Origin: a virus
Lineage: Duplodnaviria; Heunggongvirae; Uroviricota; Caudoviricetes
IMG/VR virus record: IMGVR_UViG_2585427964_000003
Direction: 5' to 3' (one strand)
Length of the DNA: 36,745 bases
Part shown: positions 6,864 through 33,128 of the stretch, piece by piece
Position numbering within the stretch: the stretch's first letter is position 1
Layout: the number at the start of each line of letters is the position of its first letter
Program-made: the position numbers and the translations under genes
The notes under the pieces: generated by a model
The model's database searches: none
Told to the model about the DNA's origin: nothing
The model's input: the letters and a program-made list of their open reading frames with translations, nothing else

Positions 6864-7556
6864 TTAGTTATCTTTTTGCTTTTCTTTATCCCATTTCTTT
6901 GCAGTGGTCTGATACCACTCTTCACGTGCTCGTTGTTCCTCGGCTCTGTCACTTGAATTATAGTTGTCTGTTTTAATTTTTTTGCTTCCCTGGGAAATCG
7001 GCCTCCAGTCTTCTCTAATCTTTTTCATCTGCTCAGCTATCTGTGTCATTGGACTCCTTGCACCTAAGTAGCTAACCCCCTCGAAAGAAGCCATATCATA
7101 AGAATACTCATTCCGCTCTCTTTCAGTTGAGCCCGGCTGTTTAGACCAGCTAATACTAACAGAATAAACTTGATCTTTAATCTGGTCATACTTACAAAGA
7201 CTGCTGTTGAGGGAATGGCCGTTTTTCAATACGCTAACCTTGCTAAATGGTATACCTTTATTTTTTCTATGTTCTGCATTAACCAGTGGGGGATTAAATC
7301 CGACTTCAATATCATAGGCTGGGGCATTTCCGGTATTAGCAATATTGATATCAAAATAAAAAGCAGCCCAAGAATTTGGTTCAAGAGTCACAACGACATG
7401 AGGTTGAACTGATGCGTCAACCATCCTTTTTGTCTCGTCTGCTAATAGCCTTGTTACTCTCCACAAGAAAAATGTAGCAACTGCTGTTAGCAATGCTGCC
7501 AAAGCGGAGATAAGTGTACTTACTGTGTTTATATGCTCTGCGATAAATTCGATCAT
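6864..7556 (-). CDS. Hypothetical membrane-anchored protein (cargo in Z/fun-equivalent variable locus)
   Basis: 230-aa ORF with AAGGA Shine-Dalgarno 7 nt upstream of ATG; one N-terminal hydrophobic helix (VSTLISALAALLTAVATFFLW), then a soluble domain and a lysine/glutamate-rich C-terminus. Visibly AT-rich compared with flanking P2 genes. No family recognised by eye. Confidence 0.6.
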   Translation of the reverse strand: MIEFIAEHINTVSTLISALAALLTAVATFFLWRVTRLLADETKRMVDASVQPHVVVTLEPNSWAAFYFDINIANTGNAPAYDIEVGFNPPLVNAEHRKNKGIPFSKVSVLKNGHSLNSSLCKYDQIKDQVYSVSISWSKQPGSTERERNEYSYDMASFEGVSYLGARSPMTQIAEQMKKIREDWRPISQGSKKIKTDNYNSSDRAEEQRAREEWYQTTAKKWDKEKQKDN

Positions 7557-8047
7557 GAGTTGTCCTTGGGGGCGTACTAATTGTTTTCAATACTAAAATA
7601 GCGCCGAGCTTGAAAAATTGCACACTTATAGTTCGATTTACCTCAACAGTTAAGGCTTCAACTTCCCCCATGCACCTCACCCAGCCCAAGACTGTATGAG
7701 GTCTGACAAAGAACTTCCTGACACTTGAAAACGAGGCAACGGCTAGGGTTTCTCGTAGGGCAAGGATTGAATACGAAGCCTGTATATTGCTCCGCGAACA
7801 CTGCTGAGGGCAGTTTAAATGTTGGGCGTTTATGTAGCCTTTCACTCACCAGCATGAGTTCAATGTCTGTGAGTTACCGACAACAATATAAAGGGGGTGG
7901 CATCATCATATATCCAAGCTAGAGTCAAATCCTCTAACTGGTTTTATGATCAGTGTCAATTGTTTGATTATTAAACGTTTACGAAGCAGCACGGGAGCCA
8001 TATAACTAATGGGCAGGTATAAGCCTGTATCACGAGGAATCAGTAAA

Positions 8048-9307: not shown

Positions 9308-11554
9308 TTATACCTGCGCCACGTTATACCATGTCCCGTTAATGTATTTCTGCACCGGTCTGTAATATACGCCACCAATGTTATCGGCAGAGTTTGAGCC
9401 GGTATCCTGAACAATAATGCCGGTATATACGCAACCTGACGGAGCCTGATGCGTCCATGTAGTACCATTATTTGCTGGTTTATATGTAGATGCACCGCCC
9501 AGCCGCATGTCTCTCACATAACGTGAATCTGACTCAGCTTTGGTGTATGCACCAACATCTCCCGCTGAGGGTTTTCGTGTTGTGGTATAGAAATCAGACC
9601 AGCCAGATTCAAAACCATAACCATCACGGGCTGACCTGTAAGATATACCGCCATTTTTATAATTCACACGAAACTGTACAGCCGGGCAGCTACCAGCATT
9701 TATATTAAAGTGAAGAATTAATGCAGATGCTCCCCCAATCAGAGCGTTGTATGCGCCACTGTCCCAATTCCATCCAACGGCTGTATCACCATTAACCGTA
9801 TTACCTGTCTGCCGAAGTGCAAATGCACCGACATTTCTGGCATTAAGGGTAATATCTCCAGAACCATCAAAGGCAACACCTGCTATTTTCCTCGGTGTTT
9901 CGAGTTTTGAGGCTGTTGCAGCATTTCCTGAAAGGTTGGAAATAAATGGATGTGAGCAGTAATAACCGCGCCCATTTTTAAAATCCAGAATAGCCTGTGC
10001 GTTCGTGCTTTCTGTAGCGGGATTAGTTGCCCCCCACTTATATGTCGTTTGACCGACGACATAATCCTCTGTCGGAACAATAACCGTTAGCCCTTCCTCT
10101 GCAAGAATTTGCACAGGGAAAGCTCTGGCTTCAACATAAAAAACACTACATACATCATCATCTTTCAGGCTTGTAACAATGGAATGGATTGAACGCTCAT
10201 TGGTCTGATACGTCCAGAAATAACCTGCCGCATATGAACCACGATCAGTCCATCCTCCGGGCATAACCATGCCATTAAACTCGCAGTTATTCATTACATA
10301 ATCGCCGTTATAACAACCAGTGGAAATAACGACGCGGGATGCCATTTCTCCTGAAAGGCTGGCAGCACGGCGAAAGATAACGGGATACCACTTCCCGGCA
10401 ACGACATTTGCAGGGGCTGCAAACGAATACTTTCGCATTCCCTTTTTCTTATCCACTTCACCTTTGCTGTAAACATTAATGTTACTCAGGAAGCGTTCTT
10501 TATCAGGAATATCCGCACCGTTCTGATCTTTCTGAAGACGTTTTTCAGCATTGTCATTGGCAGACTTCACCGCTTTTGGTGTTGCGGCCAGCGTTTCAGA
10601 ATCACTGTTGGTGGCGCTACTTAGCTGGACAAGACCTTTTCGCGCTGTGGTGGCATCCTGTGCAGTGTATTTCCCGTTAGCAAGGTCATACGCTGTCTTA
10701 ACCGCCTTTGGCGTTGCGGCCAGCGTTTCAGAATCGCTGTTGGTGGCACTACTGAGCTGAACAAGGCCTTTTCGCGCGGTGGTGGCGTCCTGCGCGGTGT
10801 ATTTGCCATTAGCAAGGTCATATGCTGTCTTAACTGCCTTCGGCGTTGCTGCGAGCGTCTCAGATTCGCTGTTGATGGCACTACTTAGCTGAACAAGACC
10901 TTTTCGCCCCGTGCTGGCGTCCTGAGCGGTATATTTTCCGTTAGCAAGGTCATACGCTGCCTTAACCGCTTTCGGCGTTGCAGCCAGCGTTTCAGATTCA
11001 CTATTGGTCGCGCTGCTTAACTGAGTAAAACCTTTTGCAGTCAGTGAGGCGTCCGGGTGGCGTCGTGACTGTTCGTGTTCTGCAATTTTGTCATCAACGT
11101 AATCCTGCGTCGCCATCACCGTTGTGGTGTCAATGGTCAGATCCACTGAGGCCACACTGCTGACGATAATGACCATGCGGCAGGTCTGCGAACGTCCTGA
11201 GCCTTCGGCAAGGGCTGGCTTATAACTTTCGGCCATGTTCGCCACGGCAATTAACGTTCCCGCATCATCGTACAGGCCAAGCTCACGCATCCAGAAACCG
11301 CCCACCTCCGGCGGAATAACCAGCTCTGCGATAATATAATTACTGTTTCGTTTGTCCTGGCTGATTTTGTTCAGCGCATGTCGCCAGACTTCGTGGATAA
11401 GCCCGGTCTGTCCGGCATCCGGGACAGGCAATTTACCACCGCCATCCCCGACGGCCATCGTGGTAATGTTGACCTTCCGCCCTCCCGGCGCGGTTGCCGC
11501 TGCCAGCTTTGCTGCACCGGCAGTGGTGATAACGGTTTTGAATTTTGTGCTCAT
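9308..11554 (-). CDS. H: Tail fibre protein gpH
   Basis: 748-aa ORF; N-terminus MSTKFKTVITTAGAAKLAAA... typical of P2-like H; contains tandem phage tail-fibre repeats (SETLAATPKAVK.AYDLANGKYTAQDA). Confidence 0.9.
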   Translation of the reverse strand: MSTKFKTVITTAGAAKLAAATAPGGRKVNITTMAVGDGGGKLPVPDAGQTGLIHEVWRHALNKISQDKRNSNYIIAELVIPPEVGGFWMRELGLYDDAGTLIAVANMAESYKPALAEGSGRSQTCRMVIIVSSVASVDLTIDTTTVMATQDYVDDKIAEHEQSRRHPDASLTAKGFTQLSSATNSESETLAATPKAVKAAYDLANGKYTAQDASTGRKGLVQLSSAINSESETLAATPKAVKTAYDLANGKYTAQDATTARKGLVQLSSATNSDSETLAATPKAVKTAYDLANGKYTAQDATTARKGLVQLSSATNSDSETLAATPKAVKSANDNAEKRLQKDQNGADIPDKERFLSNINVYSKGEVDKKKGMRKYSFAAPANVVAGKWYPVIFRRAASLSGEMASRVVISTGCYNGDYVMNNCEFNGMVMPGGWTDRGSYAAGYFWTYQTNERSIHSIVTSLKDDDVCSVFYVEARAFPVQILAEEGLTVIVPTEDYVVGQTTYKWGATNPATESTNAQAILDFKNGRGYYCSHPFISNLSGNAATASKLETPRKIAGVAFDGSGDITLNARNVGAFALRQTGNTVNGDTAVGWNWDSGAYNALIGGASALILHFNINAGSCPAVQFRVNYKNGGISYRSARDGYGFESGWSDFYTTTRKPSAGDVGAYTKAESDSRYVRDMRLGGASTYKPANNGTTWTHQAPSGCVYTGIIVQDTGSNSADNIGGVYYRPVQKYINGTWYNVAQV
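10560..11035 (-). repeat. Tandem repeat, period 132 bp (44 aa), about 3.6 copies, inside gene H
   Basis: The GCGTTTCAGA motif recurs at 10591, 10723, 10855 and 10987 (spacing exactly 132 bp); the protein shows four near-identical 44-aa units. Confidence 0.85.
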
Positions 11555-11564
11555 TATTCCTCAC

Positions 11565-12095
11565 TTATCCGGGGTAAACCGTAATTACATCGCCGTCATA
11601 AGCCACACCACCGGCAAACAGGTAGCCGGGAATGTCCCGGGTAATGTTCAGACCAATAAGGTGGCGGCTTGCAGGTTTGGCATCAGCAATCAGCCGTTCC
11701 ATTTCCTGATACATTGCCTCTGTGATGCCGCTTTCCAGTACACCAATATCAAGCCGGAAGGTGCCGGGCGGGTCACTGTTTTCCCACCACTCCGTCACGT
11801 TGATGAGATAGCCGAGCGGCTCCACCACACGCCGGATTGCACCTATTGTGCCTTTATGACAGTGGATGAAATACGCATCGCGGATAACGGCGCGTTTTGT
11901 CGCTTCCGGCCACTTTTCATCCCACCTGTCGACCGAAAACGCCCACGCCAGCCACGGCAGCAGATTTGCCGGACAGGTATCCGGGTTCCACAGCTCACGA
12001 ATACTGACCGGCGTTTTTTCAATTTCCGCACAGGCTTTTGCGGCAGCAACTTCAAGCGGTGATGAGCCGGTCGGCAGCAGTCGCGAATCACTCAT
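11565..12095 (-). CDS. I: Baseplate assembly protein gpI
   Basis: 176-aa ORF, size and position match P2 gpI. Confidence 0.88.
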   Translation of the reverse strand: MSDSRLLPTGSSPLEVAAAKACAEIEKTPVSIRELWNPDTCPANLLPWLAWAFSVDRWDEKWPEATKRAVIRDAYFIHCHKGTIGAIRRVVEPLGYLINVTEWWENSDPPGTFRLDIGVLESGITEAMYQEMERLIADAKPASRHLIGLNITRDIPGYLFAGGVAYDGDVITVYPG

Positions 12096-12996
12096 CCGAG
12101 CCTCCGGTCACGACGCGGTATTCGGTACAGAAAGACGCCTGCGTACTGTTGAGCACGATGTCAGCCAGTGGTGCAGTCAGTTCGACACGCTGCACGCCTT
12201 CCACATGCAAAGCGGCATAAATGGCAGACAGACGGATGTCGCGCCCCAGCCGGTGCTGTGCCGTGATATACGCTTCCAGTTTTTTTACTGCGGCCGCGCG
12301 GATGGGTTCGCTTTCGGGACCAGGGTAAAGGTAAAGCGTGGCGTTTATCTGGTATTCAACGATGGCGGCAGACTGCACGGTCACGCGGTCGGCCACCGGC
12401 CTGACGTCCTCGCCATTAACGGCGTTACGCACCACAGCCAGCAGGTCTTCGGATGCGACGCCGTTATTTTCACGTGACAGCACAGAGATGGTGACACAGG
12501 CAGGAGACGGACTGGTGACAGAAATATCCGCGACACGCCCGTCAGCACTGCGACCATGATACTGATAGGCTCCCACTGACCCGGCGACGCTTAAGCCCTC
12601 AAAAGCCTGCTGAATACGCAGACGATAATCGGTGTCAGATTCCATCACTGCCGGTGTCGGCGGAATGGTCGAATCATCTGCCGGGGTGATAGTCAGGCGC
12701 GTGGTGTTGTAATTGGCACCAATCACATCAAGGTCATTACCGGCGGCACAGGCCAGCATCACCGCCCGTGCGGCCTCATTCACACGCTGACGCCAGATAA
12801 GCTCACGATAAGCATTTTCTTCCAGCAGTTTGACGAGAGGCTCAGATTCCAGTGTCAGGGTACGGGCGACCGCCTCCTGCTGATCTTCCGGGTAAAGGGA
12901 AATCAGTGTCGCCTTGCGTTCAGCGAGAATGCTTTCAAAGTCCAGCTCCTCGACCACATCTGGTGCGGGTAGCTGGTTCAGGTCGATAATCGGCAT
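12088..12996 (-). CDS. J: Baseplate protein gpJ
   Basis: 302-aa ORF, size and position match P2 gpJ; overlaps I by 8 nt. Confidence 0.88.
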   Translation of the reverse strand: MPIIDLNQLPAPDVVEELDFESILAERKATLISLYPEDQQEAVARTLTLESEPLVKLLEENAYRELIWRQRVNEAARAVMLACAAGNDLDVIGANYNTTRLTITPADDSTIPPTPAVMESDTDYRLRIQQAFEGLSVAGSVGAYQYHGRSADGRVADISVTSPSPACVTISVLSRENNGVASEDLLAVVRNAVNGEDVRPVADRVTVQSAAIVEYQINATLYLYPGPESEPIRAAAVKKLEAYITAQHRLGRDIRLSAIYAALHVEGVQRVELTAPLADIVLNSTQASFCTEYRVVTGGSDE

Positions 12997-13000
12997 GGTT

Positions 13001-13348
13001 TCAACTCACAGGGATGGTTAATGAAAGTGGCTGGCCGGTGTCGTTGTGCTGGCCGGTTAACGTGACCGTCATTCGCCCGTCAAAACGGCGCTCAGTGGTG
13101 ACGGATGACAGGGTGACGCGGGGTTCCCATTTCAGCACCGCCATGTAACAGGCGACCTTAATCTGCAACTCAAGCGCCGGGGTCTGCGGCTGGTCAATCA
13201 TTGATGCCAGCAACGAGCCGTAATCACGACGCATCACCCGTGAGCCGACCGGTGTGCGCAGGATATCGCCGATACTCTGGCTGATATGCTCAAGGTCAGT
13301 GACAGTCAGGCCATCACTGCGATTCATTCCGAGATAACGCGCTGTCAT
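13001..13348 (-). CDS. W: Baseplate wedge protein gpW (gp25-like)
   Basis: 115-aa ORF, size and position match P2 gpW. Confidence 0.88.
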   Translation of the reverse strand: MTARYLGMNRSDGLTVTDLEHISQSIGDILRTPVGSRVMRRDYGSLLASMIDQPQTPALELQIKVACYMAVLKWEPRVTLSSVTTERRFDGRMTVTLTGQHNDTGQPLSLTIPVS

Positions 13349-13980
13349 AAAGGGCTCCCGGTTGTGCCGCCACTGTCGCCGGGGTGTTTATGGGTATGCA
13401 GTACCTTACCGTTTGATGAGAGTTCACCGCCGGTGTGTTCAATGTTGCCGCGCATCGTCCCGCCCTTCTGCACTTCCAGCGTGCCGGTAATCAGCCTGTT
13501 GGTGCAGACCACCTCCGGGGTGTCCAGGGTGACGCGGGTTGATGCTTTCACCATGACCACCGGCACCGTGGCAGTAACAGAATCAGAAGCCGTCACGCTG
13601 GCCGTTTTAATTCCGCTTACCGTGAGTGCACTGGTTTCGGGTTCATATTCAATCACCGCCCCGTCAGGGAAACGGATATGCAGGGCATCCGCCGACACAG
13701 ACGGCGAGGGGTTATCGCCGGAATACATCCCCGGCAGAACGAACGCCGTGTCGAGTTCACCACCCACGGCCAGAATCAGCACCTGTTCCCCCACGGAAGG
13801 TGCCCACCATGTGCGCGAACGTCCTGCGCGATGGGTCAGCCACTGAAGCCAGTCGGTGCACATGCCGCCGGTCTGCACGCGGCAGCGACCGGCGTTAAGG
13901 TCGGTTTCGACGATAATGCCGGTGCGAATCATGTTGCGCAGTGCGCGCGCGAGTTCCTGAATATTTGCGAGAGTGTTCAT
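13345..13980 (-). CDS. V: Baseplate spike/hub protein gpV
   Basis: ATG at 13980 gives 211 aa (MNTLANIQ...), the length recalled for P2 V. The ORF-track start at 13998 is a TTG. Confidence 0.85.
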   Translation of the reverse strand: MNTLANIQELARALRNMIRTGIIVETDLNAGRCRVQTGGMCTDWLQWLTHRAGRSRTWWAPSVGEQVLILAVGGELDTAFVLPGMYSGDNPSPSVSADALHIRFPDGAVIEYEPETSALTVSGIKTASVTASDSVTATVPVVMVKASTRVTLDTPEVVCTNRLITGTLEVQKGGTMRGNIEHTGGELSSNGKVLHTHKHPGDSGGTTGSPL

Positions 13981-14063: not shown

Positions 14064-14849
14064 ATGTTCAGTGATAATGTGACTAATGCGTGGTGGTTTA
14101 TCTCTTTGTATCTATTTTTATTAATAGCATTAACATTTGTTACCTTTGGTAAAAGTAATCTTATGAGGTTTATTGCACATCATTTCAATCTTGAGTATTC
14201 AGACAGAAAGTTAAAAATGCTCGACAAAAAATGGCGCGACATTCAACTATTTAAAATAATTAACGGAATCAATGTATCAGGCATCGAAGATGTGAGAATG
14301 ATACAGCAGGGGCTGATTGATGGAAAACTAAAAACATCGTATTTTTTCCTTACTCGCTTCTGGGGTGACATAACAAAACCACCACACATAATTAAAACAA
14401 TAATTGTAATTCTGGCCAGTATTATTTATATTCTCTTCGCATGTTATATACACAACAAACAATCCGCTATAGTAAGAGATGCCATAGGCATACCATATAA
14501 AAATATGATGTACTATGTTTATAGTGACAAAGTTCTTTTATCCTTCAAAAATAAAGCAGTTGAATTTAATAAAACTTATAGCCTTGCCGATTGCAAGAGA
14601 CTGCAAAACGTATTTATAAAAGACACACTTCCTGAAATCGCCTGCAATAAGCTCTTACAGCTAAACGAGGAGGACTCGGAATGGTTAAGTCAGGAGATTA
14701 AAGATAATAACAGCCAAAAAAAAGCATTATTAATAATATCCCTCATCTATTTCATTTCAGGTCTGGTTATATTCCTGTCATATACAAAATTCCTTTACGC
14801 CAATAAGAAGGTTGTAGAATACAAAGCATCAAATAAAAATCACTCATAA
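14064..14849 (+). CDS. Hypothetical integral membrane protein, three predicted TM helices (cargo in orf30-equivalent locus between V and S)
   Basis: 261-aa ORF on the opposite strand to the late operons; GAGGAGAG Shine-Dalgarno 4 nt before ATG; hydrophobic segments WWFISLYLFLLIALTFVTF, IIKTIIVILASIIYILFACYI and ALLIISLIYFISGLVIFLSY; strongly AT-rich with Lys/Asn/Ile-rich codon usage. Confidence 0.65.
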   Translation: MFSDNVTNAWWFISLYLFLLIALTFVTFGKSNLMRFIAHHFNLEYSDRKLKMLDKKWRDIQLFKIINGINVSGIEDVRMIQQGLIDGKLKTSYFFLTRFWGDITKPPHIIKTIIVILASIIYILFACYIHNKQSAIVRDAIGIPYKNMMYYVYSDKVLLSFKNKAVEFNKTYSLADCKRLQNVFIKDTLPEIACNKLLQLNEEDSEWLSQEIKDNNSQKKALLIISLIYFISGLVIFLSYTKFLYANKKVVEYKASNKNHS

Positions 14850-16793: not shown

Positions 16794-17291
16794 TTAAGCC
16801 GGTACGCCGCCAGCGGTACGCCAGACGGTGACCAGTTTTTCCAGTGAATGCTCACGCTGACCGTAACCGGCACCCGGCAGGGACGCCCAGATATTGCGAC
16901 AGCGTGAAATGGCGCGCTCAATGCGTCCCGCCCGGATGTCATCCAGTGCACCGCGTTCGCGGATCAACTGAATGGCGAGTCTGTCCTGTGACAACGGACT
17001 GAAATCCGGCAGGGCAAGCTGTTTGCGGTAATGCGGCCAGAACAGGTAAAGCTGCTGATAGCGACCGGAGGCCGTGGATTTTTCACCGCGACGGTTAAAC
17101 ACCTTCGCCGGTCGGCCATGCGCGAACGGGTGGTCACTGTAGTCAGTGAAAATTTCCGGCTTCCCGTCCAGTCCGGTGACTATCACGTCATAGCCCCGGT
17201 TTTTCGTCAGCGGATGATTCGCCGTCCCTTCGGACACGGCCAGCATGTCGAGAAAGGCCGCGATATTCTGATGCGTGTTAATTACCGGCAT
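16794..17291 (-). CDS. K: Endolysin (lysozyme) gpK
   Basis: 165-aa ORF MPVINTHQNIAAFLDMLAVSEGT... (lysozyme-like catalytic E in SEGT context); size matches P2 K. Confidence 0.9.
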   Translation of the reverse strand: MPVINTHQNIAAFLDMLAVSEGTANHPLTKNRGYDVIVTGLDGKPEIFTDYSDHPFAHGRPAKVFNRRGEKSTASGRYQQLYLFWPHYRKQLALPDFSPLSQDRLAIQLIRERGALDDIRAGRIERAISRCRNIWASLPGAGYGQREHSLEKLVTVWRTAGGVPA

Positions 17292-17572
17292 TACGGTTTC
17301 CCCCTGCCCTTAAAGCGGCGCTGAATGGCAATCTCAATCACCTGATAACCGGCGATACCCAGCATGGAGCCGATGCCGCACACCGCAGGCAGTGACAGGT
17401 CAGGAAACTGCACCAGAACAACACCGGCAACCATCGAGACAAAACCACCGAGCAACATGCGCCCGATAAACAGACGCGGGGTGATGGGTTCACCACCGGC
17501 AAGCACCTTGCCGACAACAATCAGCACCCCAATCATGAAAAGCGACAGGACGCTTTTTTCTTCTGCTGTCAT
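17291..17572 (-). CDS. Y: Holin gpY
   Basis: 93-aa ORF with TM helices; size and position match P2 Y. Confidence 0.85.
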   Translation of the reverse strand: MTAEEKSVLSLFMIGVLIVVGKVLAGGEPITPRLFIGRMLLGGFVSMVAGVVLVQFPDLSLPAVCGIGSMLGIAGYQVIEIAIQRRFKGRGKP

Positions 17573-17575
17573 GCG

Positions 17576-17779
17576 TTACTCCCACAGATTGACAGTTTCA
17601 GCCACGGGCGCGGTCTGAACGTCGGGCAGTTCGACAGCGGTGCCGTGTGGCAGCACCGCACCCAGTTCAGCCAGTCCCGGATTTGCGGCGAGCACGGTCT
17701 CAACCACGCCCTCAGTGCGCCCGTAATACCGGACACAGATGGCGTCGAGCGTGTCGCTCTGTAGCGCAAAGGTCTTCAT
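17576..17779 (-). CDS. X: Tail protein gpX
   Basis: ATG at 17777-17779 (MKTFALQSD...) gives 67 aa as in P2 X; the start overlaps the L stop as ATGA. The ORF-track start at 17848 is upstream of this. Confidence 0.85.
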   Translation of the reverse strand: MKTFALQSDTLDAICVRYYGRTEGVVETVLAANPGLAELGAVLPHGTAVELPDVQTAPVAETVNLWE

Positions 17780-18288
17780 CAGATTTGACTCACGATGCAG
17801 CGCGGCTTGTCCTGGATACGCGCCACCGCCCAGCGCATATCCCGCCACAGTTCATCAATGGTGCTGTCAATGCTGTCAGCCTTCTTGTCACCTTTCGCAC
17901 TGGCATCCACGCCGCGATAACGCTCATAAAGCGACGCGGTCGCCATCGCACACACGGCGCGCTCGTAGTAAAAAACTTTGATGCTTTCACCGTCGATGTC
18001 GTCCGCCGGGACGTCCGCCAGACGCGTAAAACCGGCAGCAATTTTCTGTTCGCGGTACTCGTACAGCTCCGCATTCGTTTCAGCCATGCCTGACTTGATG
18101 GCCTCACGCAGACGGGCGGGGGCGACGGTCTGCTCAAGGCGCATACGTTCCCGGACGCGCTTCGGATCGATATCGGGAAAAAAGAACGTGTTTTTAATCA
18201 CCGGCTCGTCGCCTGCCGGTTGCGGGATGACCACCGTACCCTCACCGGACACGGGAGCCTCCTTTCGCGGAATAATCAGCGTCATCAT
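17779..18288 (-). CDS. L: Head completion protein gpL
   Basis: ATG-ATG at 18283-18288 (MMTLIIPRKE...) with a GAGGTAG Shine-Dalgarno gives 169 aa as in P2 L; the ORF-track start at 18348 is probably too far upstream. Confidence 0.85.
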   Translation of the reverse strand: MMTLIIPRKEAPVSGEGTVVIPQPAGDEPVIKNTFFFPDIDPKRVRERMRLEQTVAPARLREAIKSGMAETNAELYEYREQKIAAGFTRLADVPADDIDGESIKVFYYERAVCAMATASLYERYRGVDASAKGDKKADSIDSTIDELWRDMRWAVARIQDKPRCIVSQI

Positions 18289-18465: not shown

Positions 18466-18658
18466 TGCGTATTTTCATGAAAGGAGATCACTCAATAACT
18501 TCCATCGAGATCGGGTAATAACATTTGAACAGATCGCTGAATAACATCGATGGAGATCACTTTTGACTCATTTTGTTATTCAGTGATCTCCATCAATGTT
18601 ATTGGAACTTCACAGGTGTGTTGATCTGTATCTTTTGCCATTCCGGTAAAGGATACCT

Positions 18659-20200
18659 ATGCCAACAGTTCCAATTTCTATGAGAAAACTTAAAGAAATT
18701 CTTAGGCTTAAATACGGTGTTGGACTCAGCCATCGACAAATTGGTCGTAGTCTTGCAATCTCCCCTTCCGTTGTATCCAGATATGCTAATCGGGCGGCTC
18801 AACTTGGCATAAAGCAGTGGCCCTTACCTACAGGATGGGATGATACAAAACTAAAACATGCGTTCCTTCAGACCCAGGTTAAGATGAAGAAGCACTCTCT
18901 GCCTGACTGGGCTACAGTACACCGGGAACTGCGTAATAAATGCGTGACGCTGCAGCTACTCTGGGAAGAATACTGTGAGCGTAATCCAGGCGGTTTTTAC
19001 AGCTATAACCATTACTGCCGGATGTACCGTGAATGGCTCAAAACCACTTCACCATCAATGCGTCAGGTACATAAAGCTGGCGAAAAACTTTTCGTTGATT
19101 ACTGTGGACCTACCGTTGGCGTTACCGACCCTGAGACCGGAGAAATAAGAACTGCTCAGGTCATCGTAGCTGTTCTCGGGGCATCAAGTTACACATGGGC
19201 AGAGGCCACCTGGTCTCAGCAGCTTGAAGACTGGGTGATGAGTCATGTTCGCTGCTTCCAGTGGTTGGGTGGCGTTCCTGAACTTGTTGTTCCGGACAAT
19301 CTGAAAAGCGCCACATCCAGGGCATGTAAGTATGATCCTGACGTTAACCCTACCTACCAGCAGATGCTTGAGCATTATAATGTCGCAGTTTTGCCTGCGC
19401 GGCCACGTAAACCGAAAGATAAAGCCAAAGCTGAAGTTGGCGTTCAGGTTGTTGAACGCTGGATCATGGCCCGAATCAGGCATGAGATCTTCTACAGCCT
19501 TGCATCGCTTAATCAGCGCATTCGGGAGTTGCTGGAAAGACTGAATAACAAAATAATGCAGAAGTTGGGTTATTCACGTGCAGAACTCTTCATCCAGCTT
19601 GATAAACCCGCACTGAAGCCTCTTCCTGAAGCCAGTTACAGTTACACCCTGGTGAAGAAAGTCAGAGTTCATGCCGATTACCACGTGGAAATCGACAAAC
19701 ATTACTACTCGGTTCCATGTTCGCTGTTAGGCCAGCAACTGGAAGCATGGATCTCCGGAGAACTGGTAAGACTCTTCAATCAGGGGCAGGAGGTTGCTGT
19801 GCACCCGCGCAAGCGTACTTATGGCTACAGTACCCGCAACGAGCACATGCCTGAAGCTCATCGACAGCATGCCACCTGGACGCCAGAGCGTCTTCTGGAA
19901 TGGGCGGGGCACATAGGCAGTGAAACTCATAGTTATGTGCTTCATATACTGAACTCTCGTCCACATCCGGAACAAAGCTATCGCTTCTGCCTTGGACTCC
20001 TGAACCTTCATAAAAAATACAGTAAAGCCAGACTTAATGCAGCATGTGCAAGAGCTCTGAAAACAAAGGTATGGCGTCTGTCAGGTATTAAATCGATCCT
20101 GGAAAAAGGTCTGGATAAACAACCTGTTCAGGATCCAAAACCAGATCTGTTATCCACGATGGAACACGAAAACGTACGCGGCAGTGAGTATTACCACTGA
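18659..20200 (+). CDS. istA: IS21-family transposase IstA
   Basis: 513-aa ORF with N-terminal helix-turn-helix (LSHRQIGRSLAISPSVVSRY) and a DDE-type integrase core; AAGGA Shine-Dalgarno before the ATG. Confidence 0.85.
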   Translation: MPTVPISMRKLKEILRLKYGVGLSHRQIGRSLAISPSVVSRYANRAAQLGIKQWPLPTGWDDTKLKHAFLQTQVKMKKHSLPDWATVHRELRNKCVTLQLLWEEYCERNPGGFYSYNHYCRMYREWLKTTSPSMRQVHKAGEKLFVDYCGPTVGVTDPETGEIRTAQVIVAVLGASSYTWAEATWSQQLEDWVMSHVRCFQWLGGVPELVVPDNLKSATSRACKYDPDVNPTYQQMLEHYNVAVLPARPRKPKDKAKAEVGVQVVERWIMARIRHEIFYSLASLNQRIRELLERLNNKIMQKLGYSRAELFIQLDKPALKPLPEASYSYTLVKKVRVHADYHVEIDKHYYSVPCSLLGQQLEAWISGELVRLFNQGQEVAVHPRKRTYGYSTRNEHMPEAHRQHATWTPERLLEWAGHIGSETHSYVLHILNSRPHPEQSYRFCLGLLNLHKKYSKARLNAACARALKTKVWRLSGIKSILEKGLDKQPVQDPKPDLLSTMEHENVRGSEYYH

Positions 20201-20211
20201 TACGGGATCCA

Positions 20212-20961
20212 ATGATGAATCATCTTTACGAACAACTGACCGCACTTAAACTCACCGGCTTCCGTGATGCGCTTAAAAAGCAACTTGCTCAGCCGGGCAC
20301 ATACCAGGAGCTGGGCTTCGAAGAACGCCTGTCATTACTGACAGCAGAAGAACTAACCTGCCGTGAAAACAGGAAGGCAGAGCGTCTGATCAAACATGCA
20401 CGGTTCAGACTTAATGCTGAGTTATCAAAGCTGGATTATCGTAACAATAGAGGGCTGGACAGGGCCCTCATCCGTTCACTCAGTCAGGGAAACTGGTTAA
20501 CCCTGAAACAAAATATTTTACTGACCGGGGCCACCGGCAGCGGTAAAACGTTCCTGGCATGTGCACTTGGTCATAATGCCTGCCGACAGGGATACAAGGT
20601 CTACTATTATCGCCTTAAAGCGCTGATGGAACAGTGCTATCAGGGGCATGCTGATGGAAGATACAGCAAACTTTTGACCAGGCTGAATAATAGCGATCTG
20701 CTGCTTCTGGATGACTGGGGGCTGGAACCTCTCTCATCAGAACAGCGTAGCGACCTGCTGGAAATAGTGGATCTGATGTACCAACGAGGCTCAATCATCG
20801 TAGTGAGCCAGTTGCCGGTGGAAAACTGGTACAAAATGATCGGAGACTCCACACATGCGGATGCCATCCTAGATCGACTGGTTCATGGCAGTATCAAGAT
20901 CGAACTTAAAGGAGAATCAATGCGGAAAATACAATCTCCGTTGACCGAAGGAGATCAGTGA
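20212..20961 (+). CDS. istB: IS21-family ATP-binding helper protein IstB
   Basis: 249-aa ORF with Walker A (GATGSGKT) and Walker B (LLLLDDWG), the typical IstB AAA+ architecture, immediately downstream of istA. Confidence 0.88.
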   Translation: MMNHLYEQLTALKLTGFRDALKKQLAQPGTYQELGFEERLSLLTAEELTCRENRKAERLIKHARFRLNAELSKLDYRNNRGLDRALIRSLSQGNWLTLKQNILLTGATGSGKTFLACALGHNACRQGYKVYYYRLKALMEQCYQGHADGRYSKLLTRLNNSDLLLLDDWGLEPLSSEQRSDLLEIVDLMYQRGSIIVVSQLPVENWYKMIGDSTHADAILDRLVHGSIKIELKGESMRKIQSPLTEGDQ

Positions 20962-21018
20962 AGGTAATTTAAAAACGGTTCTGTGAAAGTGACACGAACC
21001 GATCTCCATCGATGTTAC

Positions 21019-21711
21019 TCACCGATCTCCTTCACGGTAATACGCAGCCGCTTTGGGCTGCGGCTTCGGTTTCAGCTCCCGCTCCAGTCGTTCAATCTCT
21101 TTTTTGACGCCTGCCTGACAGTCGAGCTGTGTCGCACGTTGCAGGTGCGCCAGCGCCCCTGCGGCATCACCAGCGTCACGCAGAAACAGACCGGTGATTT
21201 TGTGCAGCTTTGCGCGCACTTCATCAGGCATGTCTGCCGTGGCGGTAAGTTCAAGGGTGTCCGTCAGCAGGCGGGTATCCACGGATTCACCGGCAGCGTG
21301 AGCGCGCATGGCCGCGAGTGCCACTTCCTCGGTGAACATGTACGGCGGGGTGCGGCGGTGTTTACCCGGCATGGTCAGACCGTACTTCAGGGCATAACGG
21401 GCAATCTCCAGCGCACCGGCAATATCGCCGGTATCCAGACGCCACAGCATGACCGTCATCAGAATGTCATCCTGTGCACCTTTGCCCTGCTCCAGCACGC
21501 CGTTCACCCACGGCAACCAGAACGGCAGCAGTTCGCGTTTTTTCGCGGCCTTCAGCTCTTTTGAATAAATCGCTTTCAGTGTGCGCTGGTCTGCGGCGAG
21601 CTTAACCAGCATCTGCTCATAGACAGTTGCATGTCGCAGCGGGGCGGCTTCCCGCTGCGCGGTCATCGCTGCCGAGACCCGCATCATGTGGCGCTGTGCG
21701 GGACTCGTCAT
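21019..21711 (-). pseudogene. M: Terminase small (endonuclease) subunit gpM, 3' end interrupted by IS insertion
   Basis: 230-aa ORF MTSPAQRHMMRVSAAMTAQ...; its last 8 codons (AYYREGDR-stop) are encoded by the IS right terminus. Native sequence runs up to the GCCGC duplication at 21047-21051. Confidence 0.8.
21047..21051. repeat. Target-site duplication GCCGC (right copy)
   Basis: Identical 5-mer to 18461-18465, directly flanking the right IS terminus. Confidence 0.7.
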
Positions 21712-27016: not shown

Positions 27017-27901
27017 TCAGGCGCAAGTTGGCATTGAGACCCCTTTCAGGGTATTAGGAATAATTATTTCAGGAGAAAAAATCATCACTTCCTCTCCAGA
27101 TTTTTTGAGATGTGCTGTATATTGCAATGAATACTCAACTTGCGGAAATCCATTATAAATATCTTTAATTTCCTTAGCGTTATCATAAGAAACAAGCCAA
27201 TTTGGGAAATTAATTTCTGTGAGTTTCTTCATAACCAATACATGGTCATCATGCTCATAAAAATTCCTGTAAAGCCCTTGCCCTTTAATATAGTAAGGAG
27301 GATCCAAATACAAAAGAATTTTATTTTTATCCACCTTTCCCATATTATCCATAAAATTCAAGGCATCAAGAAAATCCAAAGCATCCAGATTAGTTACTAC
27401 TATTCTTTGATTATAATTTGCTATCTTCTCAATTCTTGAAATTAAATCCGCCCTGTTAAAGCGAACATCCATTTTCCATTTTCCATTTTGTGATTTCCCG
27501 CCTATAACCCCCGCCTTGAGAATACCTGAACGATTTGTTCTATTTAAGAAAAACGCAGCAAAGCCAACCTCAAGCTTAGTAAACTCAGAAGGATTCGAAA
27601 TAACATAGCGATGAAAAGACCATTCATCCATATCTATCTTTGCTCGGCTAATAAGTCGGCAAAGCTCATCAGTATCACTAACAACAGATGACCAAAAAGA
27701 ATAAACAGCAAAATCTGCATCATTTATATAGATTTTACGGACATACTCTTCCAATAATAATTCTAAAGCCACCCCTGCACCACCAGCGTAAGGTTCTGCA
27801 TATGCTCCATCATTCAACGAGTTTTTTTCAATAACATCTTTTAAAAAGTAAGATAACTTACCTTTCCCGCCGGGGTATCTTAATGGAGTATAAAATTTCA
27901 T
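27017..27901 (-). CDS. Dam-class (D12 family) N6-adenine DNA methyltransferase
   Basis: 294-aa ORF with GAGGG Shine-Dalgarno; motifs YPGGKGKL near the N-terminus, PYAGGAG (SAM-binding FxGxG-like) and LDPPYY (catalytic DPPY). Strongly AT-rich; lies in the tin/old-equivalent position. Confidence 0.8.
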   Translation of the reverse strand: MKFYTPLRYPGGKGKLSYFLKDVIEKNSLNDGAYAEPYAGGAGVALELLLEEYVRKIYINDADFAVYSFWSSVVSDTDELCRLISRAKIDMDEWSFHRYVISNPSEFTKLEVGFAAFFLNRTNRSGILKAGVIGGKSQNGKWKMDVRFNRADLISRIEKIANYNQRIVVTNLDALDFLDALNFMDNMGKVDKNKILLYLDPPYYIKGQGLYRNFYEHDDHVLVMKKLTEINFPNWLVSYDNAKEIKDIYNGFPQVEYSLQYTAHLKKSGEEVMIFSPEIIIPNTLKGVSMPTCA

Positions 27902-27938
27902 AAATCCCTCTCATTCCTGATTTTGTAGTTTATCAGTT

Positions 27939-27958
27939 TCTGGACATCCATGTCCAGA
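27939..27958. promoter_or_regulatory. Perfect palindrome TCTGGACA-TCCA-TGTCCAGA upstream of the methyltransferase gene (candidate operator)
   Basis: 8-bp perfect inverted repeat with 4-nt spacer in the 69-bp gap between the two cargo genes, 38-57 nt upstream of the methyltransferase ATG. Confidence 0.4.
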
Positions 27959-27970
27959 TGTAGACAAATC

Positions 27971-29476
27971 TCACTCACTCCAAATAAGGCTTAATAACAA
28001 CTCAAAGTTATCCCACTCAGTGTTGACAGCCTCTTTTGAGGGAATTAAGTGTGGGTTATGTACATACTGCTGCAATGAACCATCATGTTTAGTTATTTGG
28101 CTCGAGAAAGTTATTACAGCCGTACATTGACTCCCCGTCATCTTTTTATTTTCCCGAAGGAAATTAGCACACATTTTAACCTTATCATGAAGCCCTGGAG
28201 TTCTATGTGGTTCCTTAAATTGTAACTTGTTTTCTTCAACAAAAGTGCTTACAGAGAGATCTATAAATATTCTCAACAATATTGAGATAGCATTAGGGGT
28301 GTTATCAAATGTCAGATGCGACTTAAGCTCATTAAATATTCTAGAGCATTTCTTATGCCCTCTAAAATTAAATTTCACATAAGATGGCACCAACACATTA
28401 CGATCTACTTTAGGAGGAGTTTTTCCCTTGTTTTTATTCTGTTCCGTGCCCGAAACTTTAGATTTACTCTCTTCTGTGCCTACATGTCTAGAATAATCAT
28501 CTTCCTGTTTATCCACACCTGTATTCTTTAAGGCATCACCTTCTGAAAGACCTACTTTCTTTACACTCACAGATGCATCATTTTTGTCAATAGAATCATG
28601 TTTTTTCTCTGTAAGAAAAGATTTAGGCTCCAGTAAACTCCACGGCTTATCTAAAAGAGATTCTGAAGGTTTTATTTTTTGTTCAATAATAAATGTAACC
28701 CTGTCATCTTGGCTACGAATCCTATTAACAGTAAAACAAGCCTTACCTTTATCATCCTCTTCAATCATTACATCTAAAATATTTTTTAATTGTGCACAAA
28801 AACGTTCATAAGGCTGATATGAGTATAGAACTCCATTAATGCTTTTTAAATTAAAATAATCCCTCACCTTTAAATCACCAAAAAGACGCGTGATGTTTGT
28901 GATTTTTAAAAGTCTTTTTTTAGCAATTATCTCTTTATATAAATCAGTATTGAACTCTATAAATGTAAGTATTTGATTACCAAATGACTGCTTACCCATC
29001 CTAGCCAGATGTCGTGCTTTTTCTGTTGCAGTCCATTCAACTCTTCCAACTCCAGCATTTTGACCAGTATGCTTTAAATTGACCCAATGCTCATATTCAT
29101 CATCGTCAAAAAGAACGCAGTTATCTATAACATTAATATCTTTAAGCTGAGTAATCTTAAGTTTTTCAAAAGCTTTCCGTGCTTTTTCTGTTGGTGCAAG
29201 TCTAGGAGAGTGTAAAAGTTTAAGGGCTGTAACTCGACGATTACCTTCAGCAACGACGAAAAAGCCAGATTCCTCTTCACTAGGATAAACTAATATGTTT
29301 TCAGACGGATCTAAACCTTTCGAAGCAATATCTTTAGCCAAGCGATAAATGCGGTCGTACTGCAAGTCAAGCATCTTGGCAATAGCATCACGCTGATTTT
29401 CTGCTGACGTCGGGAAACGAGGGTTATCAACATCCAAAAGTAACTTATTGATATTCATTGATTTTAGTTGATTCAT
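27971..29476 (-). CDS. ParB/Srx-fold nuclease-domain protein with long C-terminal extension (cargo gene)
   Basis: N-terminal region LLLDVDNPRF ... ILVYPSEEESGFFVVAEGNRRVTALKLL carries the ParB N-terminal domain signature (GxRR). A Lys/Glu/Ser-rich low-complexity linker is followed by a roughly 150-aa C-terminal domain of unrecognised type. Start chosen at ATG 29474-29476 (AGAGGA Shine-Dalgarno 8 nt upstream, 501 aa); the ORF track extends to 29545 (524 aa). AT-rich. Confidence 0.7.
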   Translation of the reverse strand: MNQLKSMNINKLLLDVDNPRFPTSAENQRDAIAKMLDLQYDRIYRLAKDIASKGLDPSENILVYPSEEESGFFVVAEGNRRVTALKLLHSPRLAPTEKARKAFEKLKITQLKDINVIDNCVLFDDDEYEHWVNLKHTGQNAGVGRVEWTATEKARHLARMGKQSFGNQILTFIEFNTDLYKEIIAKKRLLKITNITRLFGDLKVRDYFNLKSINGVLYSYQPYERFCAQLKNILDVMIEEDDKGKACFTVNRIRSQDDRVTFIIEQKIKPSESLLDKPWSLLEPKSFLTEKKHDSIDKNDASVSVKKVGLSEGDALKNTGVDKQEDDYSRHVGTEESKSKVSGTEQNKNKGKTPPKVDRNVLVPSYVKFNFRGHKKCSRIFNELKSHLTFDNTPNAISILLRIFIDLSVSTFVEENKLQFKEPHRTPGLHDKVKMCANFLRENKKMTGSQCTAVITFSSQITKHDGSLQQYVHNPHLIPSKEAVNTEWDNFELLLSLIWSE

Positions 29477-29832
29477 CAACATATCCTCTGTTGAATCTTT
29501 ATGATAAAAATTAATTATTTTTATCATAAATGATAGCGTAAACATAGTCTTATGAACGACATCAGCCCTGAAGCTTCAAAACTATCATTTACGTTTGCGA
29601 GGCACCATCTATCACATTGATTTATAATAAGTATCTTTATCTTCACTGCATTGCTCTCAAAAAATCACATAGATGGAAATTCCCCGTTGACACACTCCCA
29701 AGTGATGCAGATACATTTCAAGTGCTTCATACACATGATAACGGCTATCCCCCTAAATTCTGTGCGTTTCTTTTCCCTCCAGCACAAGGTTGAAATATCT
29801 TGCGTGCAGCTTTACTTTGTGAATCTTTGTCA

Positions 29833-32124
29833 TTATATCCGCGCCATTACTGTTGAGAATCCCGGCCACTCATCAGCGACCGGATACGTGAATTTTTTCC
29901 CGTCATAATTTACGGTCGCGCCACGCGCCAGCACCTCAAGCTCCCATCGTTGCGGCCTGATACCGTTCTGAGCGAGGTCAACGCGGATACGGGTAATTTG
30001 CAATCGTTCCGACCGGGTCAGTCTGGCCGACGGTGCTATTTCATGCGGTTTTAACGGGCTTCCGGCTCTTTGCTGACGATTTGGTGTTCTCAGTCCGTGT
30101 TTTAATGCGCCCCTGAGCGCCCTCACGACCTCCGGGTCATTCCATTCGATAACACCGTCATCAACCAGATTAAGCACTGCTGCGACGTGCTCAGAAGGTG
30201 TGGGAGCCGGTAACGAAGTATCACCACTGGTGAGCTTTCCACAGTTATTGACAGGACTCCGAGGCGCGGCGATGCCGCTTTTTAAAGTCAAAGGCTCAAC
30301 GACCGGAACTTTCAGCACAATGCGCCAGTCCGTCGTTCTGGTGATATGAATATGACGCGCGCCGAGATGCGGCGCGTAAATGCCGACCACTCTCTCGACT
30401 TCTTCCTCATACTCGTTAACGTCATCTGACGGGCTACGGGCGACCCTGACAGTCTGACAATCGCGCGGGACATTTGCCCCACCCTGCGCGCTGATATACA
30501 ACGCAAAATCACCACTGTCTGCGGCGGCGCGTGCAGCCTCGACGCGTTCGTCAAACTCATCAGCAATGCTGACGCCGCGAGGCAATTTGCGTAGCTCACG
30601 GTAAGCCCCCATTGTCGGCAGGCCAACCGTTTTAAATTGCGGGATGCGCCACGTTGACGCCCATGCGGTAACAGCCGCGGCAGTATCTTTAAGCGGCTTA
30701 CCGGTATCGTTATCGAGCTGACCATCCAGTGCATAGCCGTCGATATTTTTTGAAATGTATTTCGCGATATATCCCGCAGCACCGCCCCGGTTAAGGTGTT
30801 TTGCCTGAAAACGGTTTCGCGCAGCGCCTCTTTCGTCACCATCCTCTTTGAGCGCATAGCGACGCATGATTTCGATAATCTGGTTACGCTGGCGTGGATT
30901 ACAAAAAAGCATCATATGCCAGTGCGGCGTTCCGTCGTGGTGTGGCTCGACGACACGCAAACCGTAGACCTGTAAATCATTATCCTTGAATGCCGTGCGC
31001 ATCAGGCTCCAGATACGGCAGAGATAACGCTGCGCATCCTTTGGATTAAATGCCTCATCGTTCCAGCCGTGATTAAGCTGAACGGTTTTACTTTCGCCTT
31101 TTCCGACCTGACGTGTCGGGTGATACTTTGACGGCGCGGTCAGCGTGATAAACATCCCCACATCACCCTCTGCGGCGGCGTAACGCTCAATACCGGCAAT
31201 GGTGTTCATCAGCTCCATCCGGCGAATTTCAGGATTAGAAATACTGCCCATCACCTTACTGATAAGGTCGATGCGCTCGCCGGTTTCCCTGTTTTCAAGG
31301 TCACACGATTTAAGAAATTCCAGATTTGCCTGGCGGCGCGCACGCACATCACGAATGGCATGTTTACTGGCATAAGGAGAACGGTCTTTATTGACCTCCC
31401 CGACAGCTATCAGTAAAGCTTCATGCCAGCGCATACGCTGGCCTTTAAGCTGATGAGTCCACCACTCATCGTTAAACAGGCGGGCAATGGCAGAATATGC
31501 CTGCCTCGTGGTTATCTGTCCTTTACGGTATTTTTTCCAGTAGAGCGGGGAAATATTGAAAGCACGTGCAGCGCCAGCAACATGACCATACAGATGATCC
31601 TGCGCCTCATCCGTAAACAGTGATTCTTTTTCGCCATGCGCATCCACCCAGGCATCGCAGAGTTCCTCATACATCATGAAAAGCTGCGATGAAATACGGG
31701 CGGCAAACTTTTTCAGCTCCTTGTCATTCATCCCCGGCAGACGCGCATAGTGGTCACGCTCAGCCAGAAACAGCAACGACGCGTCGGTGTTCATTTCATG
31801 GCGCTGATTCACGCGCTCAATGCGCGGCCATAAACGACGCTGAAAAGTGGATGTGAGGAAATAAAACCCGTGTACCGGGCTTTTATTGCGCCGGATGTAG
31901 TCATAGCGTGAAGTAAACAGCGAGCGCAAAAAGTAAGGCAGGCGGTTAATCGTGGATAAAACCCCTTGCACCTGACGCATCTCGTCACGTGTAAGGGGTC
32001 TTTCGCGCCCGACGGCCTCGCGTGGCGCGTTCCATGCATAAGCACCGGTAAACGTCTTACCGGTGCCTGCAGCAAATGCTGACGTAGTTACGCAGGTGTA
32101 TTGCTCCTGGAAAGAATGACTCAT
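29833..32124 (-). CDS. A: Replication initiation endonuclease gpA (rolling-circle)
   Basis: 763-aa ORF MSHSFQEQYTCVTTSAFAAGTGKTFTGAYAWNAP...; size and position match P2 A (about 761 aa from memory). Confidence 0.92.
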   Translation of the reverse strand: MSHSFQEQYTCVTTSAFAAGTGKTFTGAYAWNAPREAVGRERPLTRDEMRQVQGVLSTINRLPYFLRSLFTSRYDYIRRNKSPVHGFYFLTSTFQRRLWPRIERVNQRHEMNTDASLLFLAERDHYARLPGMNDKELKKFAARISSQLFMMYEELCDAWVDAHGEKESLFTDEAQDHLYGHVAGAARAFNISPLYWKKYRKGQITTRQAYSAIARLFNDEWWTHQLKGQRMRWHEALLIAVGEVNKDRSPYASKHAIRDVRARRQANLEFLKSCDLENRETGERIDLISKVMGSISNPEIRRMELMNTIAGIERYAAAEGDVGMFITLTAPSKYHPTRQVGKGESKTVQLNHGWNDEAFNPKDAQRYLCRIWSLMRTAFKDNDLQVYGLRVVEPHHDGTPHWHMMLFCNPRQRNQIIEIMRRYALKEDGDERGAARNRFQAKHLNRGGAAGYIAKYISKNIDGYALDGQLDNDTGKPLKDTAAAVTAWASTWRIPQFKTVGLPTMGAYRELRKLPRGVSIADEFDERVEAARAAADSGDFALYISAQGGANVPRDCQTVRVARSPSDDVNEYEEEVERVVGIYAPHLGARHIHITRTTDWRIVLKVPVVEPLTLKSGIAAPRSPVNNCGKLTSGDTSLPAPTPSEHVAAVLNLVDDGVIEWNDPEVVRALRGALKHGLRTPNRQQRAGSPLKPHEIAPSARLTRSERLQITRIRVDLAQNGIRPQRWELEVLARGATVNYDGKKFTYPVADEWPGFSTVMARI

Positions 32125-33128
32125 TCACATACACCGGCATAGACACTACTGCAAACGGCTTTATCATTCGCCGAAGCCAGTAAATCAAACTGAGTACCCC
32201 CACGCGTTGTCATTGTCCAGTCATGGTAGGTTTCTATTCCGTATGCCTCGACTGTTACAATCTCAATACGACGTTCTGCGCGTAGCGGATCATGTGTGGA
32301 TGGGAAAAAAGTGGAATTTCCCCGACGGGAGCACGACGCAACCAGTCGTTCCCATTCAGCAACCCGTTTTATTTCCTCCGGCCACCGGCGAAAAATTTCT
32401 GCCAGTTCAGATTTACGGACATGAATACATGGCATACAACCAACACGGCCACACCCCTGCTGATATAACGGATTTGGCTTAATGTCATGTCTTCTGGCTA
32501 TTGCAAATACATCTTCATGCTTCCAGTGCAAAATCGGGCGATATACATGCAATCCGGGGGTGTTGTCTGCATCCTCTTCCCAGACAGGTAAAGCAGCGCG
32601 TGATGGCGATTCCTGAGCACGCACTCCCTGCCAGCTAATCACTTCCTCAAATTCATTGAGTAAAGGCAATATTACCTGAGAACGCACGGGCTCATGTTTC
32701 AGTTCAAATGTGCAAAATCTGGCTTTGGTTGATGGGAAACGCCCCTTCCACAGACACAAATCAAGAAACGGGATACCCGTTGGTTTGAGAATTTCCAGCG
32801 CACAACTGATGCGCTGGTGCGCTTCTTCTTCCGACATTCCACAATCGTTAACCAACAAATCAGGCCATTTGGTCTGGATAAACTTGCGCTTTGATTCAAT
32901 CCGGCAGGAAAAATCAGCTCTGACTCTTTTAATTGGGCCAAGCCGTTTTTCCAGATAATCCAGATATTTCATTGTCTGTGGATGTTCATGTCCCGTATCA
33001 GCAAAAACCGGCAATATGGGTACATTTTCTTCAATAGCGACAAGCCACTGAGCAAGGCTGTCCTTTCCACCTGAAACAAAAATAACATTGATGGTATTTT
33101 CAGTATGGCAACGAGCATCAGTAATCAT
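32121..33128 (-). CDS. PAPS reductase / DndC-like PP-loop ATP pyrophosphatase family protein
   Basis: 335-aa ORF with N-terminal PP-loop VIFVSGGKDS and a C-terminal cysteine cluster (GCGRVGCMPC). Start overlaps the orf83-like stop and its stop overlaps the A start (ATGA at both junctions). Confidence 0.75.
   Translation of the reverse strand: MITDARCHTENTINVIFVSGGKDSLAQWLVAIEENVPILPVFADTGHEHPQTMKYLDYLEKRLGPIKRVRADFSCRIESKRKFIQTKWPDLLVNDCGMSEEEAHQRISCALEILKPTGIPFLDLCLWKGRFPSTKARFCTFELKHEPVRSQVILPLLNEFEEVISWQGVRAQESPSRAALPVWEEDADNTPGLHVYRPILHWKHEDVFAIARRHDIKPNPLYQQGCGRVGCMPCIHVRKSELAEIFRRWPEEIKRVAEWERLVASCSRRGNSTFFPSTHDPLRAERRIEIVTVEAYGIETYHDWTMTTRGGTQFDLLASANDKAVCSSVYAGVCE

Follow-up and report, generated by a model that had tools for sequence, protein, structure and literature searches.

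The tail-fiber gene H of a P2-like prophage carries a 132-bp tandem repeat in the stretch of DNA analyzed here (36,745 nt, hereafter the window), which raises the question of whether this repeat expanded recently in the lineage or was inherited as an old arrangement. The first-pass annotation of the window described the nucleotide copies as highly similar, suggested recent duplication, and pointed to a possible recombinational instability of the repeat. The answer depends on what the repeat encodes, on how far its units have diverged from each other and from those of related genes, and on how the number of units varies in the family.

Architecture of gene H and its repeat array

The repeat had been placed at 10560..11035, with Tandem Repeats Finder proposed as a check. 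Run on positions 9500..12500, the program returned a single array at 10565..11036, within 5 bases of that placement, with a period of 132, 3.6 copies, 85% matches, 0% indels and a score of 650. The array lies in frame within the 748-aa ORF of gene H (Table 1) and encodes three full 44-aa units and a fourth unit reduced to a core of 26-30 aa, after which the sequence diverges. The translated units agree with the 44-aa consensus given in the first pass. The fourth unit matches the unit profile at positions 1-30 only, the arrays of relatives that have 3 to 5 units end in a unit 93-98% identical to it, and the "first-unit" class represented by unit 1 is recognizable in all relatives when the units are aligned. 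An 86-aa minus-strand ORF at 10621..10881 results from reading the repeat in another frame.

The repeat belongs to a family already catalogued in Pfam, PF03406 (Phage_fiber_2, "phage tail fibre repeat"). The protein reaches 263.5 bits against a cut-off of 22 (E = 4e-80) in four separate stretches, so the repeat match is far beyond chance. These units sit between an N-terminal domain that matches PF12571 over aa 1-151 (197 bits, E = 2e-58, covering profile positions 1-150 of 150) and a distal part similar to the Mu fiber protein S/S'. The PF12571 domain is presumably the baseplate-attachment end, an assignment suggested by the name of the family and by where the N-terminus lies in the related Mu fiber (PMC11915804). 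On the other side of the array, a phmmer search of PDB sequences aligned aa 288-362, comprising the last unit and the linker, with residues 99-173 of Mu S (5yvq, 8ju3; E ~6e-16), and aa 572-746 with residues 318-486 of the Mu S/S' fusion (8ju3_A; E = 5e-59). Pfam also reports a weak gp37_C match at aa 592-676. The distal part (aa 363-748) is presumed to bind the receptor.

The neighboring genes agree with this assignment. Genes W, J, I, H and G follow each other on the minus strand (Table 1) in the order annotated likewise in P2 and in the P2-like prophage of E. coli APEC O78, with which the window is colinear at 94-99% identity. The J-I-H-G order and the PF12571 domain uphold the earlier statement that the repeat lies inside a P2-type tail-fiber gene H; the gene has the PF12571 N-terminus, the P2 gene order and the downstream assembly gene of a P2-type gpH. 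The G equivalent is annotated as "tail fiber assembly protein" in APEC O78. The H protein itself matches the "tail fiber protein" annotated in APEC O78 (WP_000104680.1) at 100% identity, and the gene is also 100% identical in three NWU strains. The gene was thus already annotated identically in RefSeq, and phage isolates carrying this four-unit H gene are already in GenBank.

Other parts of the window contain the following features. An insertion of ~2.6 kb relative to the APEC O78 prophage, at 18467..21055 in the head/terminase gene block, contains an IS21-family pair (istA and istB, Table 1); because this IS21-type insertion lies in the head/terminase block, the prophage copy may be defective. 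At 27017..29545 (minus strand), where the window has no alignment with the APEC O78 prophage, a two-gene anti-phage defense pair lies beside the portal gene and encodes a 524-aa protein matching PD-Lambda-5_A (E = 6e-168) and a 294-aa D12-class adenine methyltransferase matching PD-Lambda-5_B (E = 1e-121). Another stretch unaligned to APEC O78, at 32121..33128 (minus strand) and adjoining a replication gene, encodes a protein of 335 aa that contains a PAPS-reductase domain (E = 5e-35) and gives weak SspD/DndC/BrxP-like matches. The position between the fiber-assembly and tail-sheath genes, where P2 has its Z/fun cargo, is occupied at 6864..7845 (minus strand) by ORFs of 230 and 142 aa that gave no Pfam or PADLOC match; a relative described below (L104) has a GapS4a family gene at this position. 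A 261-aa ORF at 14064..14849 (plus strand) lies on the opposite strand inside the tail/baseplate block; it gave no family match, and its APEC O78 equivalent is annotated as "hypothetical protein". Over 12894..13401 the window retains intact W and J, whereas a deletion in APEC O78 (L107) leaves a truncated baseplate gene, and the APEC O78 prophage is also without the stretch corresponding to 16795..17807 of the window. The two prophages share an identical H gene and differ in their decay.

Table 1 Coordinates of gene H, its parts and the other genes discussed (window positions)
Feature	Coordinates	Strand	Remarks
Tail-fibre gene H, P2-like (Peduovirus) prophage, 748 aa	9308..11554	-	PF12571, four PF03406 stretches, weak gp37_C
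Fibre N-terminal domain, aa 1-151	11102..11554	-	PF12571, Phage tail-collar fibre protein N-terminal
Repeat unit 1, aa 175-218	10901..11032	-	GFTQLSSATNSESETLAATPKAVKAAYDLANGKYTAQDASTGRK; 81.8% nt identity to units 2 and 3
Repeat unit 2, aa 219-262	10769..10900	-	87.9% nt identity to unit 3
Repeat unit 3, aa 263-306	10637..10768	-	100% identical to unit 3 of alleles L047 and L049
Repeat unit 4, core only, aa 307-~332	10559..10636	-	GLVQLSSATNSDSETLAATPKAVK; junction to distal part
Linker after last unit, aa 333-362	10469..10558	-	SANDNAEKRLQKDQNGADIPDKERFLSNIN; resembles Mu tail-fibre protein S
Distal part, aa 363-748	9311..10468	-	Presumed receptor-binding; aa 572-746 Mu S/S'-like
Tail-fibre assembly protein (gene G equivalent), 175 aa	8777..9304	-	PF02413 Caudo_TAP, E = 4e-33
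Gene W	13001..13348	-	
Gene J	12088..12996	-	
Gene I	11565..12095	-	
istA, 513 aa	18659..20200	+	rve and Mu-transpos_C_2
istB, 249 aa	20212..20961	+	IstB_IS21, E = 2e-67

Age of the four-unit array

The P2 gpH protein (NP_046775.1) is 669 aa long, as stated in the first-pass annotation, and contains two unit matches, one full and one core. The segment lengths are 174 + 44 + 26 + 425 aa in P2 and 174 + 3x44 + 26 + 416 aa in the window, so that two extra units (+88 aa) and a distal part shorter by 9 aa explain exactly the 79-aa excess of the window's protein. Copy number therefore accounts for the extra length as had been supposed, offset by the 9 aa lost from the distal part. The step from two units in P2 to four in the window would fit a recent tandem duplication that enlarged a two-unit, P2-like gene in this lineage, in which case the array might still be recombinationally unstable, and such duplications do occur in relatives: one (L003) has identical units 2 and 3, and another (L104) has five units including a pair that is 99.2% identical.

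The divergence between the units of the window argues against this origin. Near-identical DNA copies with low synonymous divergence, by which a recent duplication would be recognized, were not found among the full units of the window, which are pairwise 81.8%, 81.8% and 87.9% identical; the copies are thus less similar than the first pass had described. Most of the codon differences between units are silent; units 2 and 3, the closest pair, differ by 14 synonymous and 2 non-synonymous codons. By the Nei-Gojobori method, dS between the units is 0.62-0.91 (0.62 for units 2-3 and 0.8-0.9 for the other pairs), compared with 0.05-0.13 for the N-terminal domain among E. coli alleles, where nucleotide identity is 97-99%, and 0.24 for the same domain against an E. 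albertii prophage. With dN/dS at 0.03-0.11, the units are shown to be under strong purifying selection at the protein level.

Comparison with other four-unit genes leads to the same result. When 31 distinct four-unit haplotypes were compared, each position was 92-95% identical from allele to allele, against 82-89% between different positions. Same-position identity exceeds between-unit identity, so the four positions are orthologous across alleles and predate the diversification of the alleles. In the same 31 haplotypes we found no excess of within-gene over between-gene unit identity of the kind that concerted evolution would leave (85.8 vs 85.3%, 81.9 vs 82.0% and 89.0 vs 89.1%, respectively). 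Four units in the same register are present in 38/80 close relatives (the best 80 of 424 IMG/VR matches), and H genes of Citrobacter, Salmonella, Buttiauxella, Scandinavium, Yokenella and others have 1-4 units, also in the same register, beginning at residue 174/175. Homologous genes with the same four copies and diverged nucleotide sequences, a pattern at odds with recent expansion, are therefore largely what the family presents.

The length of the allele is constant as well. All records of this allele in complete E. coli genomes (at least 97.6% identity) are exactly 2247 bp long (17/17; several of them belong to the same clone, so that they represent roughly eight independent strains), and copy-number differences among these near-identical alleles were not found. 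Variants with three or five units and the distal type of the window do exist, but at about 93-95% identity. These records also bear on the accuracy of the unit count. Tandem repeats are a classic cause of collapsed or expanded assemblies, and many H proteins in the databases are partial; against a mis-assembled unit number, the identical 2247-bp gene occurs in independent complete genomes (APEC O78, NWU_1/3/4, EC6563 and others) and in the IMG/VR locus L072, and the units differ at 12-18% of positions, which makes their placement unambiguous. The probability of an assembly artifact is therefore negligible.

A recent duplication in the window is refuted by the synonymous divergence between its units; the better match of these units to their positional counterparts in other alleles than to each other, the shared register and the single length of near-identical alleles also weigh against it, and we consider it very improbable. 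The four-unit arrangement in the window is an old, inherited allele and not a recent expansion, and its unit count is a stable character of the allele and not a sign of ongoing instability.

Recombination and copy number in the family

The reading that we favor, with a probability of roughly 0.85, is that an old, inherited array of four PF03406 units serves as the proximal shaft of gpH, while rare exchange and the swapping of distal parts vary the copy number. The four copies would form a proximal shaft segment of the P2-type gpH, presumably as a trimer, to which each unit may add a fixed length, and the four-unit allele would be kept by purifying selection on the protein. Copy number (1-6) would shift by rare in-register unequal exchange between units, and also when distal receptor-binding modules are swapped at the last unit. 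The conserved core of this unit (...SETLAATPKAVK), which is common to lambdoid Stf, P1 S and Mu S, could provide a homology patch and act as the recombination junction for module swapping.

Structural information on the repeat is limited as follows. The AlphaFold2 monomer model of the full protein, computed from a 19-sequence alignment, had a mean pLDDT of 39 and a pTM of 0.27 and was unusable, leaving the shaft-spacer role without support from the model; its one hint, of low confidence, is that each unit contains a short strand and a helix of 11 residues. A 2021 study (PMC8078820) modeled PF03406 along with other repeat families for want of a known structure, and the in-situ Mu structure includes an atomic model of the gp49 N-terminus only, with the residue range not stated (PMC11915804).

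Several observations mark the repeats as a zone rich in recombination. The four-unit alleles have a nucleotide diversity of 0.067 in their repeats, about 3.5 times the 0.019 of the N-terminal domain, and by the Hudson-Kaplan estimate the repeats require at least 67 recombination events per kb, compared with 21 per kb in that domain. In the aligned units, a limited set of variant blocks is redistributed like a patchwork among units and alleles. The break to the distal part always falls inside the last unit, after 26-36 residues. Exchange partners are ample, since 392 phage records contain the PF03406 motif, among them lambdoid side tail fibers, Stx phages, P1 S and Mu/D108 S. Haggard-Ljungquist et al. 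reportedly proposed in 1992 that conserved fiber motifs mediate the horizontal exchange of receptor-binding modules, and Sandmeier is said to have expressed the same view in 1994; the recombination-rich repeat zone fits this long-standing view.

The patchwork raises the question of whether units 1 and 2 of the window were replaced by a patch from a diverged, unsampled fiber gene, which would make the array old and its present combination young. From unit 3 through to the stop codon, the alleles L047 and L049 agree with the window at 99-100% identity, and in the N-terminal domain at 97.5%, yet over units 1-2 identity falls to 85-89%. Moreover, the unit 1 and unit 2 haplotype of the window is found at 95% identity or more in 17 complete-genome E. 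coli records only, the next match being at most 87.5%, and the shared variant blocks are scattered over units and alleles. On the other hand, when 5,426 complete E. coli genomes were searched for possible donors of the divergent units 1-2, no match between 87.5% and 95% identity turned up, and many short conversion tracts over a long time could give a similar pattern. We regard such a mosaic import as having about even odds; it would refine the favored reading, with which it is compatible, and is not a true alternative to it.

The number of units varies in the family. The 80 IMG/VR loci closest to the N-terminal domain of the window, out of 424 matches, comprise 6 genes with one unit, 24 with two, 2 with three, 38 with four and 10 with five, frequencies that do not represent an unbiased population estimate. 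Six units were found among protein-database entries, many of which are partial H proteins. Copy number mostly tracks the type of distal part: 669-aa P2-type genes all have two units and 709-aa genes all have five. Rare exceptions are L104 and L105, in which the distal type of the window follows five and three units, respectively, and L013, in which a 440-aa type follows five.

Recent changes can be recognized in a few of these genes. A pair of full units at least 95% identical is present in just 4/53 genes having at least three units, namely L003 (100%), L043 and L104 (both 99.2%) and L014 (97%). In L003 (IMGVR_UViG_3300045988_127872), units 2 and 3 are identical over 132 bp; in L104 (E. coli EH01-18-02, NZ_CP063518.1), units 3 and 4 of the five are the nearly identical ones, and both match unit 3 of the window. 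L003 and L104 thus carry truly recent unit duplications or conversions. The near-identical pairs in these four relatives indicate that recent duplications happen in the family, though not in the window. The instability suspected in the first pass is therefore weakly supported at the level of the family, with its range of 1-6 units and its four relatives with fresh duplicates, and does not extend to the allele of the window, which has one length in all its records.

Since each distal type has a characteristic copy number, the number of units might be tuned to hold total fiber length constant as distal modules are swapped. The correlation between copy number and distal-part length does have the negative sign that such compensation predicts, but it is not significant over 28 distal types (Spearman rho -0.25, p = 0.21), giving no sign that copy number is tuned, and total length varies as much (standard deviation 90 aa) as the distal part does on its own (92 aa). 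Length compensation is thus improbable.

The array could also be more than a passive spacer. It might be maintained as a zone of recombination whose units stay synonymously diverged, which would protect the array against deletion, while short conversion tracts and in-register exchanges with other fiber genes shuffle variants and occasionally change the unit number. If so, a changed unit number would alter the reach of the fiber and the host range. Such a zone would be compatible with the excess diversity, with the scattering of shared blocks and with the private unit 1-2 haplotype, none of which demonstrates selection, and we consider this extension of the favored reading rather doubtful.

Beyond correct annotation, the repeat finding matters little. 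Of practical use are the full account of the length difference from P2 H, the stability of the unit count as an allele character, and the core of the last unit, which would mark the natural junction for the exchange of distal receptor-binding modules and is relevant to the engineering of P2 and tailocin fibers; the repeat is not discussed in the P2 fiber-engineering papers PMC9594776 and PMC9942202.

Comparison with known fibers

Short repeats of variable number are known from other fibers. The pseudo-repeats of the adenovirus fiber shaft and the repeats of T4 gp34/gp37 form a trimeric shaft between an attachment domain and a receptor-binding tip. The likeness of these shafts to the array of the window would be an analogy of layout.

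A sequence relation exists with the other PF03406 fibers, including Mu S, P1 S, lambdoid Stf and the fibers of Stx phages, which share the motif …QLSSATNS.SETLAATPKAVK… with the window. Tandem copies are also present in lambdoid Stf, of which PhiR42_1 is 88% identical across two units, and in Mu S the residues that align with the window are those matching its last unit and linker. These fibers differ from the window in having other N-terminal attachment domains and mostly one or two units, whereas it was the P2-type H genes that showed, in this analysis, the regular 44-aa array of as many as six units.

The closest known system is P2 itself. Gene H has the same J-I-H-G position in P2 and in the window, with a Caudo_TAP gene downstream; codons 1-174, which encode the N-terminal domain, are 96.9% identical at the nucleotide level, and the 44-aa repeat starts at residue 175 in a shared register. 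The differences are the number of units, two in P2 against four in the window, and the type of distal part, which is unrelated past the last core (425 aa in P2, and 416 aa of the Mu S/S'-like type in the window). Among phages with a four-unit H gene, Escherichia phage 9W and Peduovirus P22H4 are 97.8% identical to the window over the whole gene. In Yersinia phage vB_YpM_46 and in vB_EcoM-12474II-V, the N-terminal domain and the four units are colinear with those of the window at 93-95% identity; their distal parts diverge past ~nucleotide 1049, whereas those of 9W and P22H4 do not.
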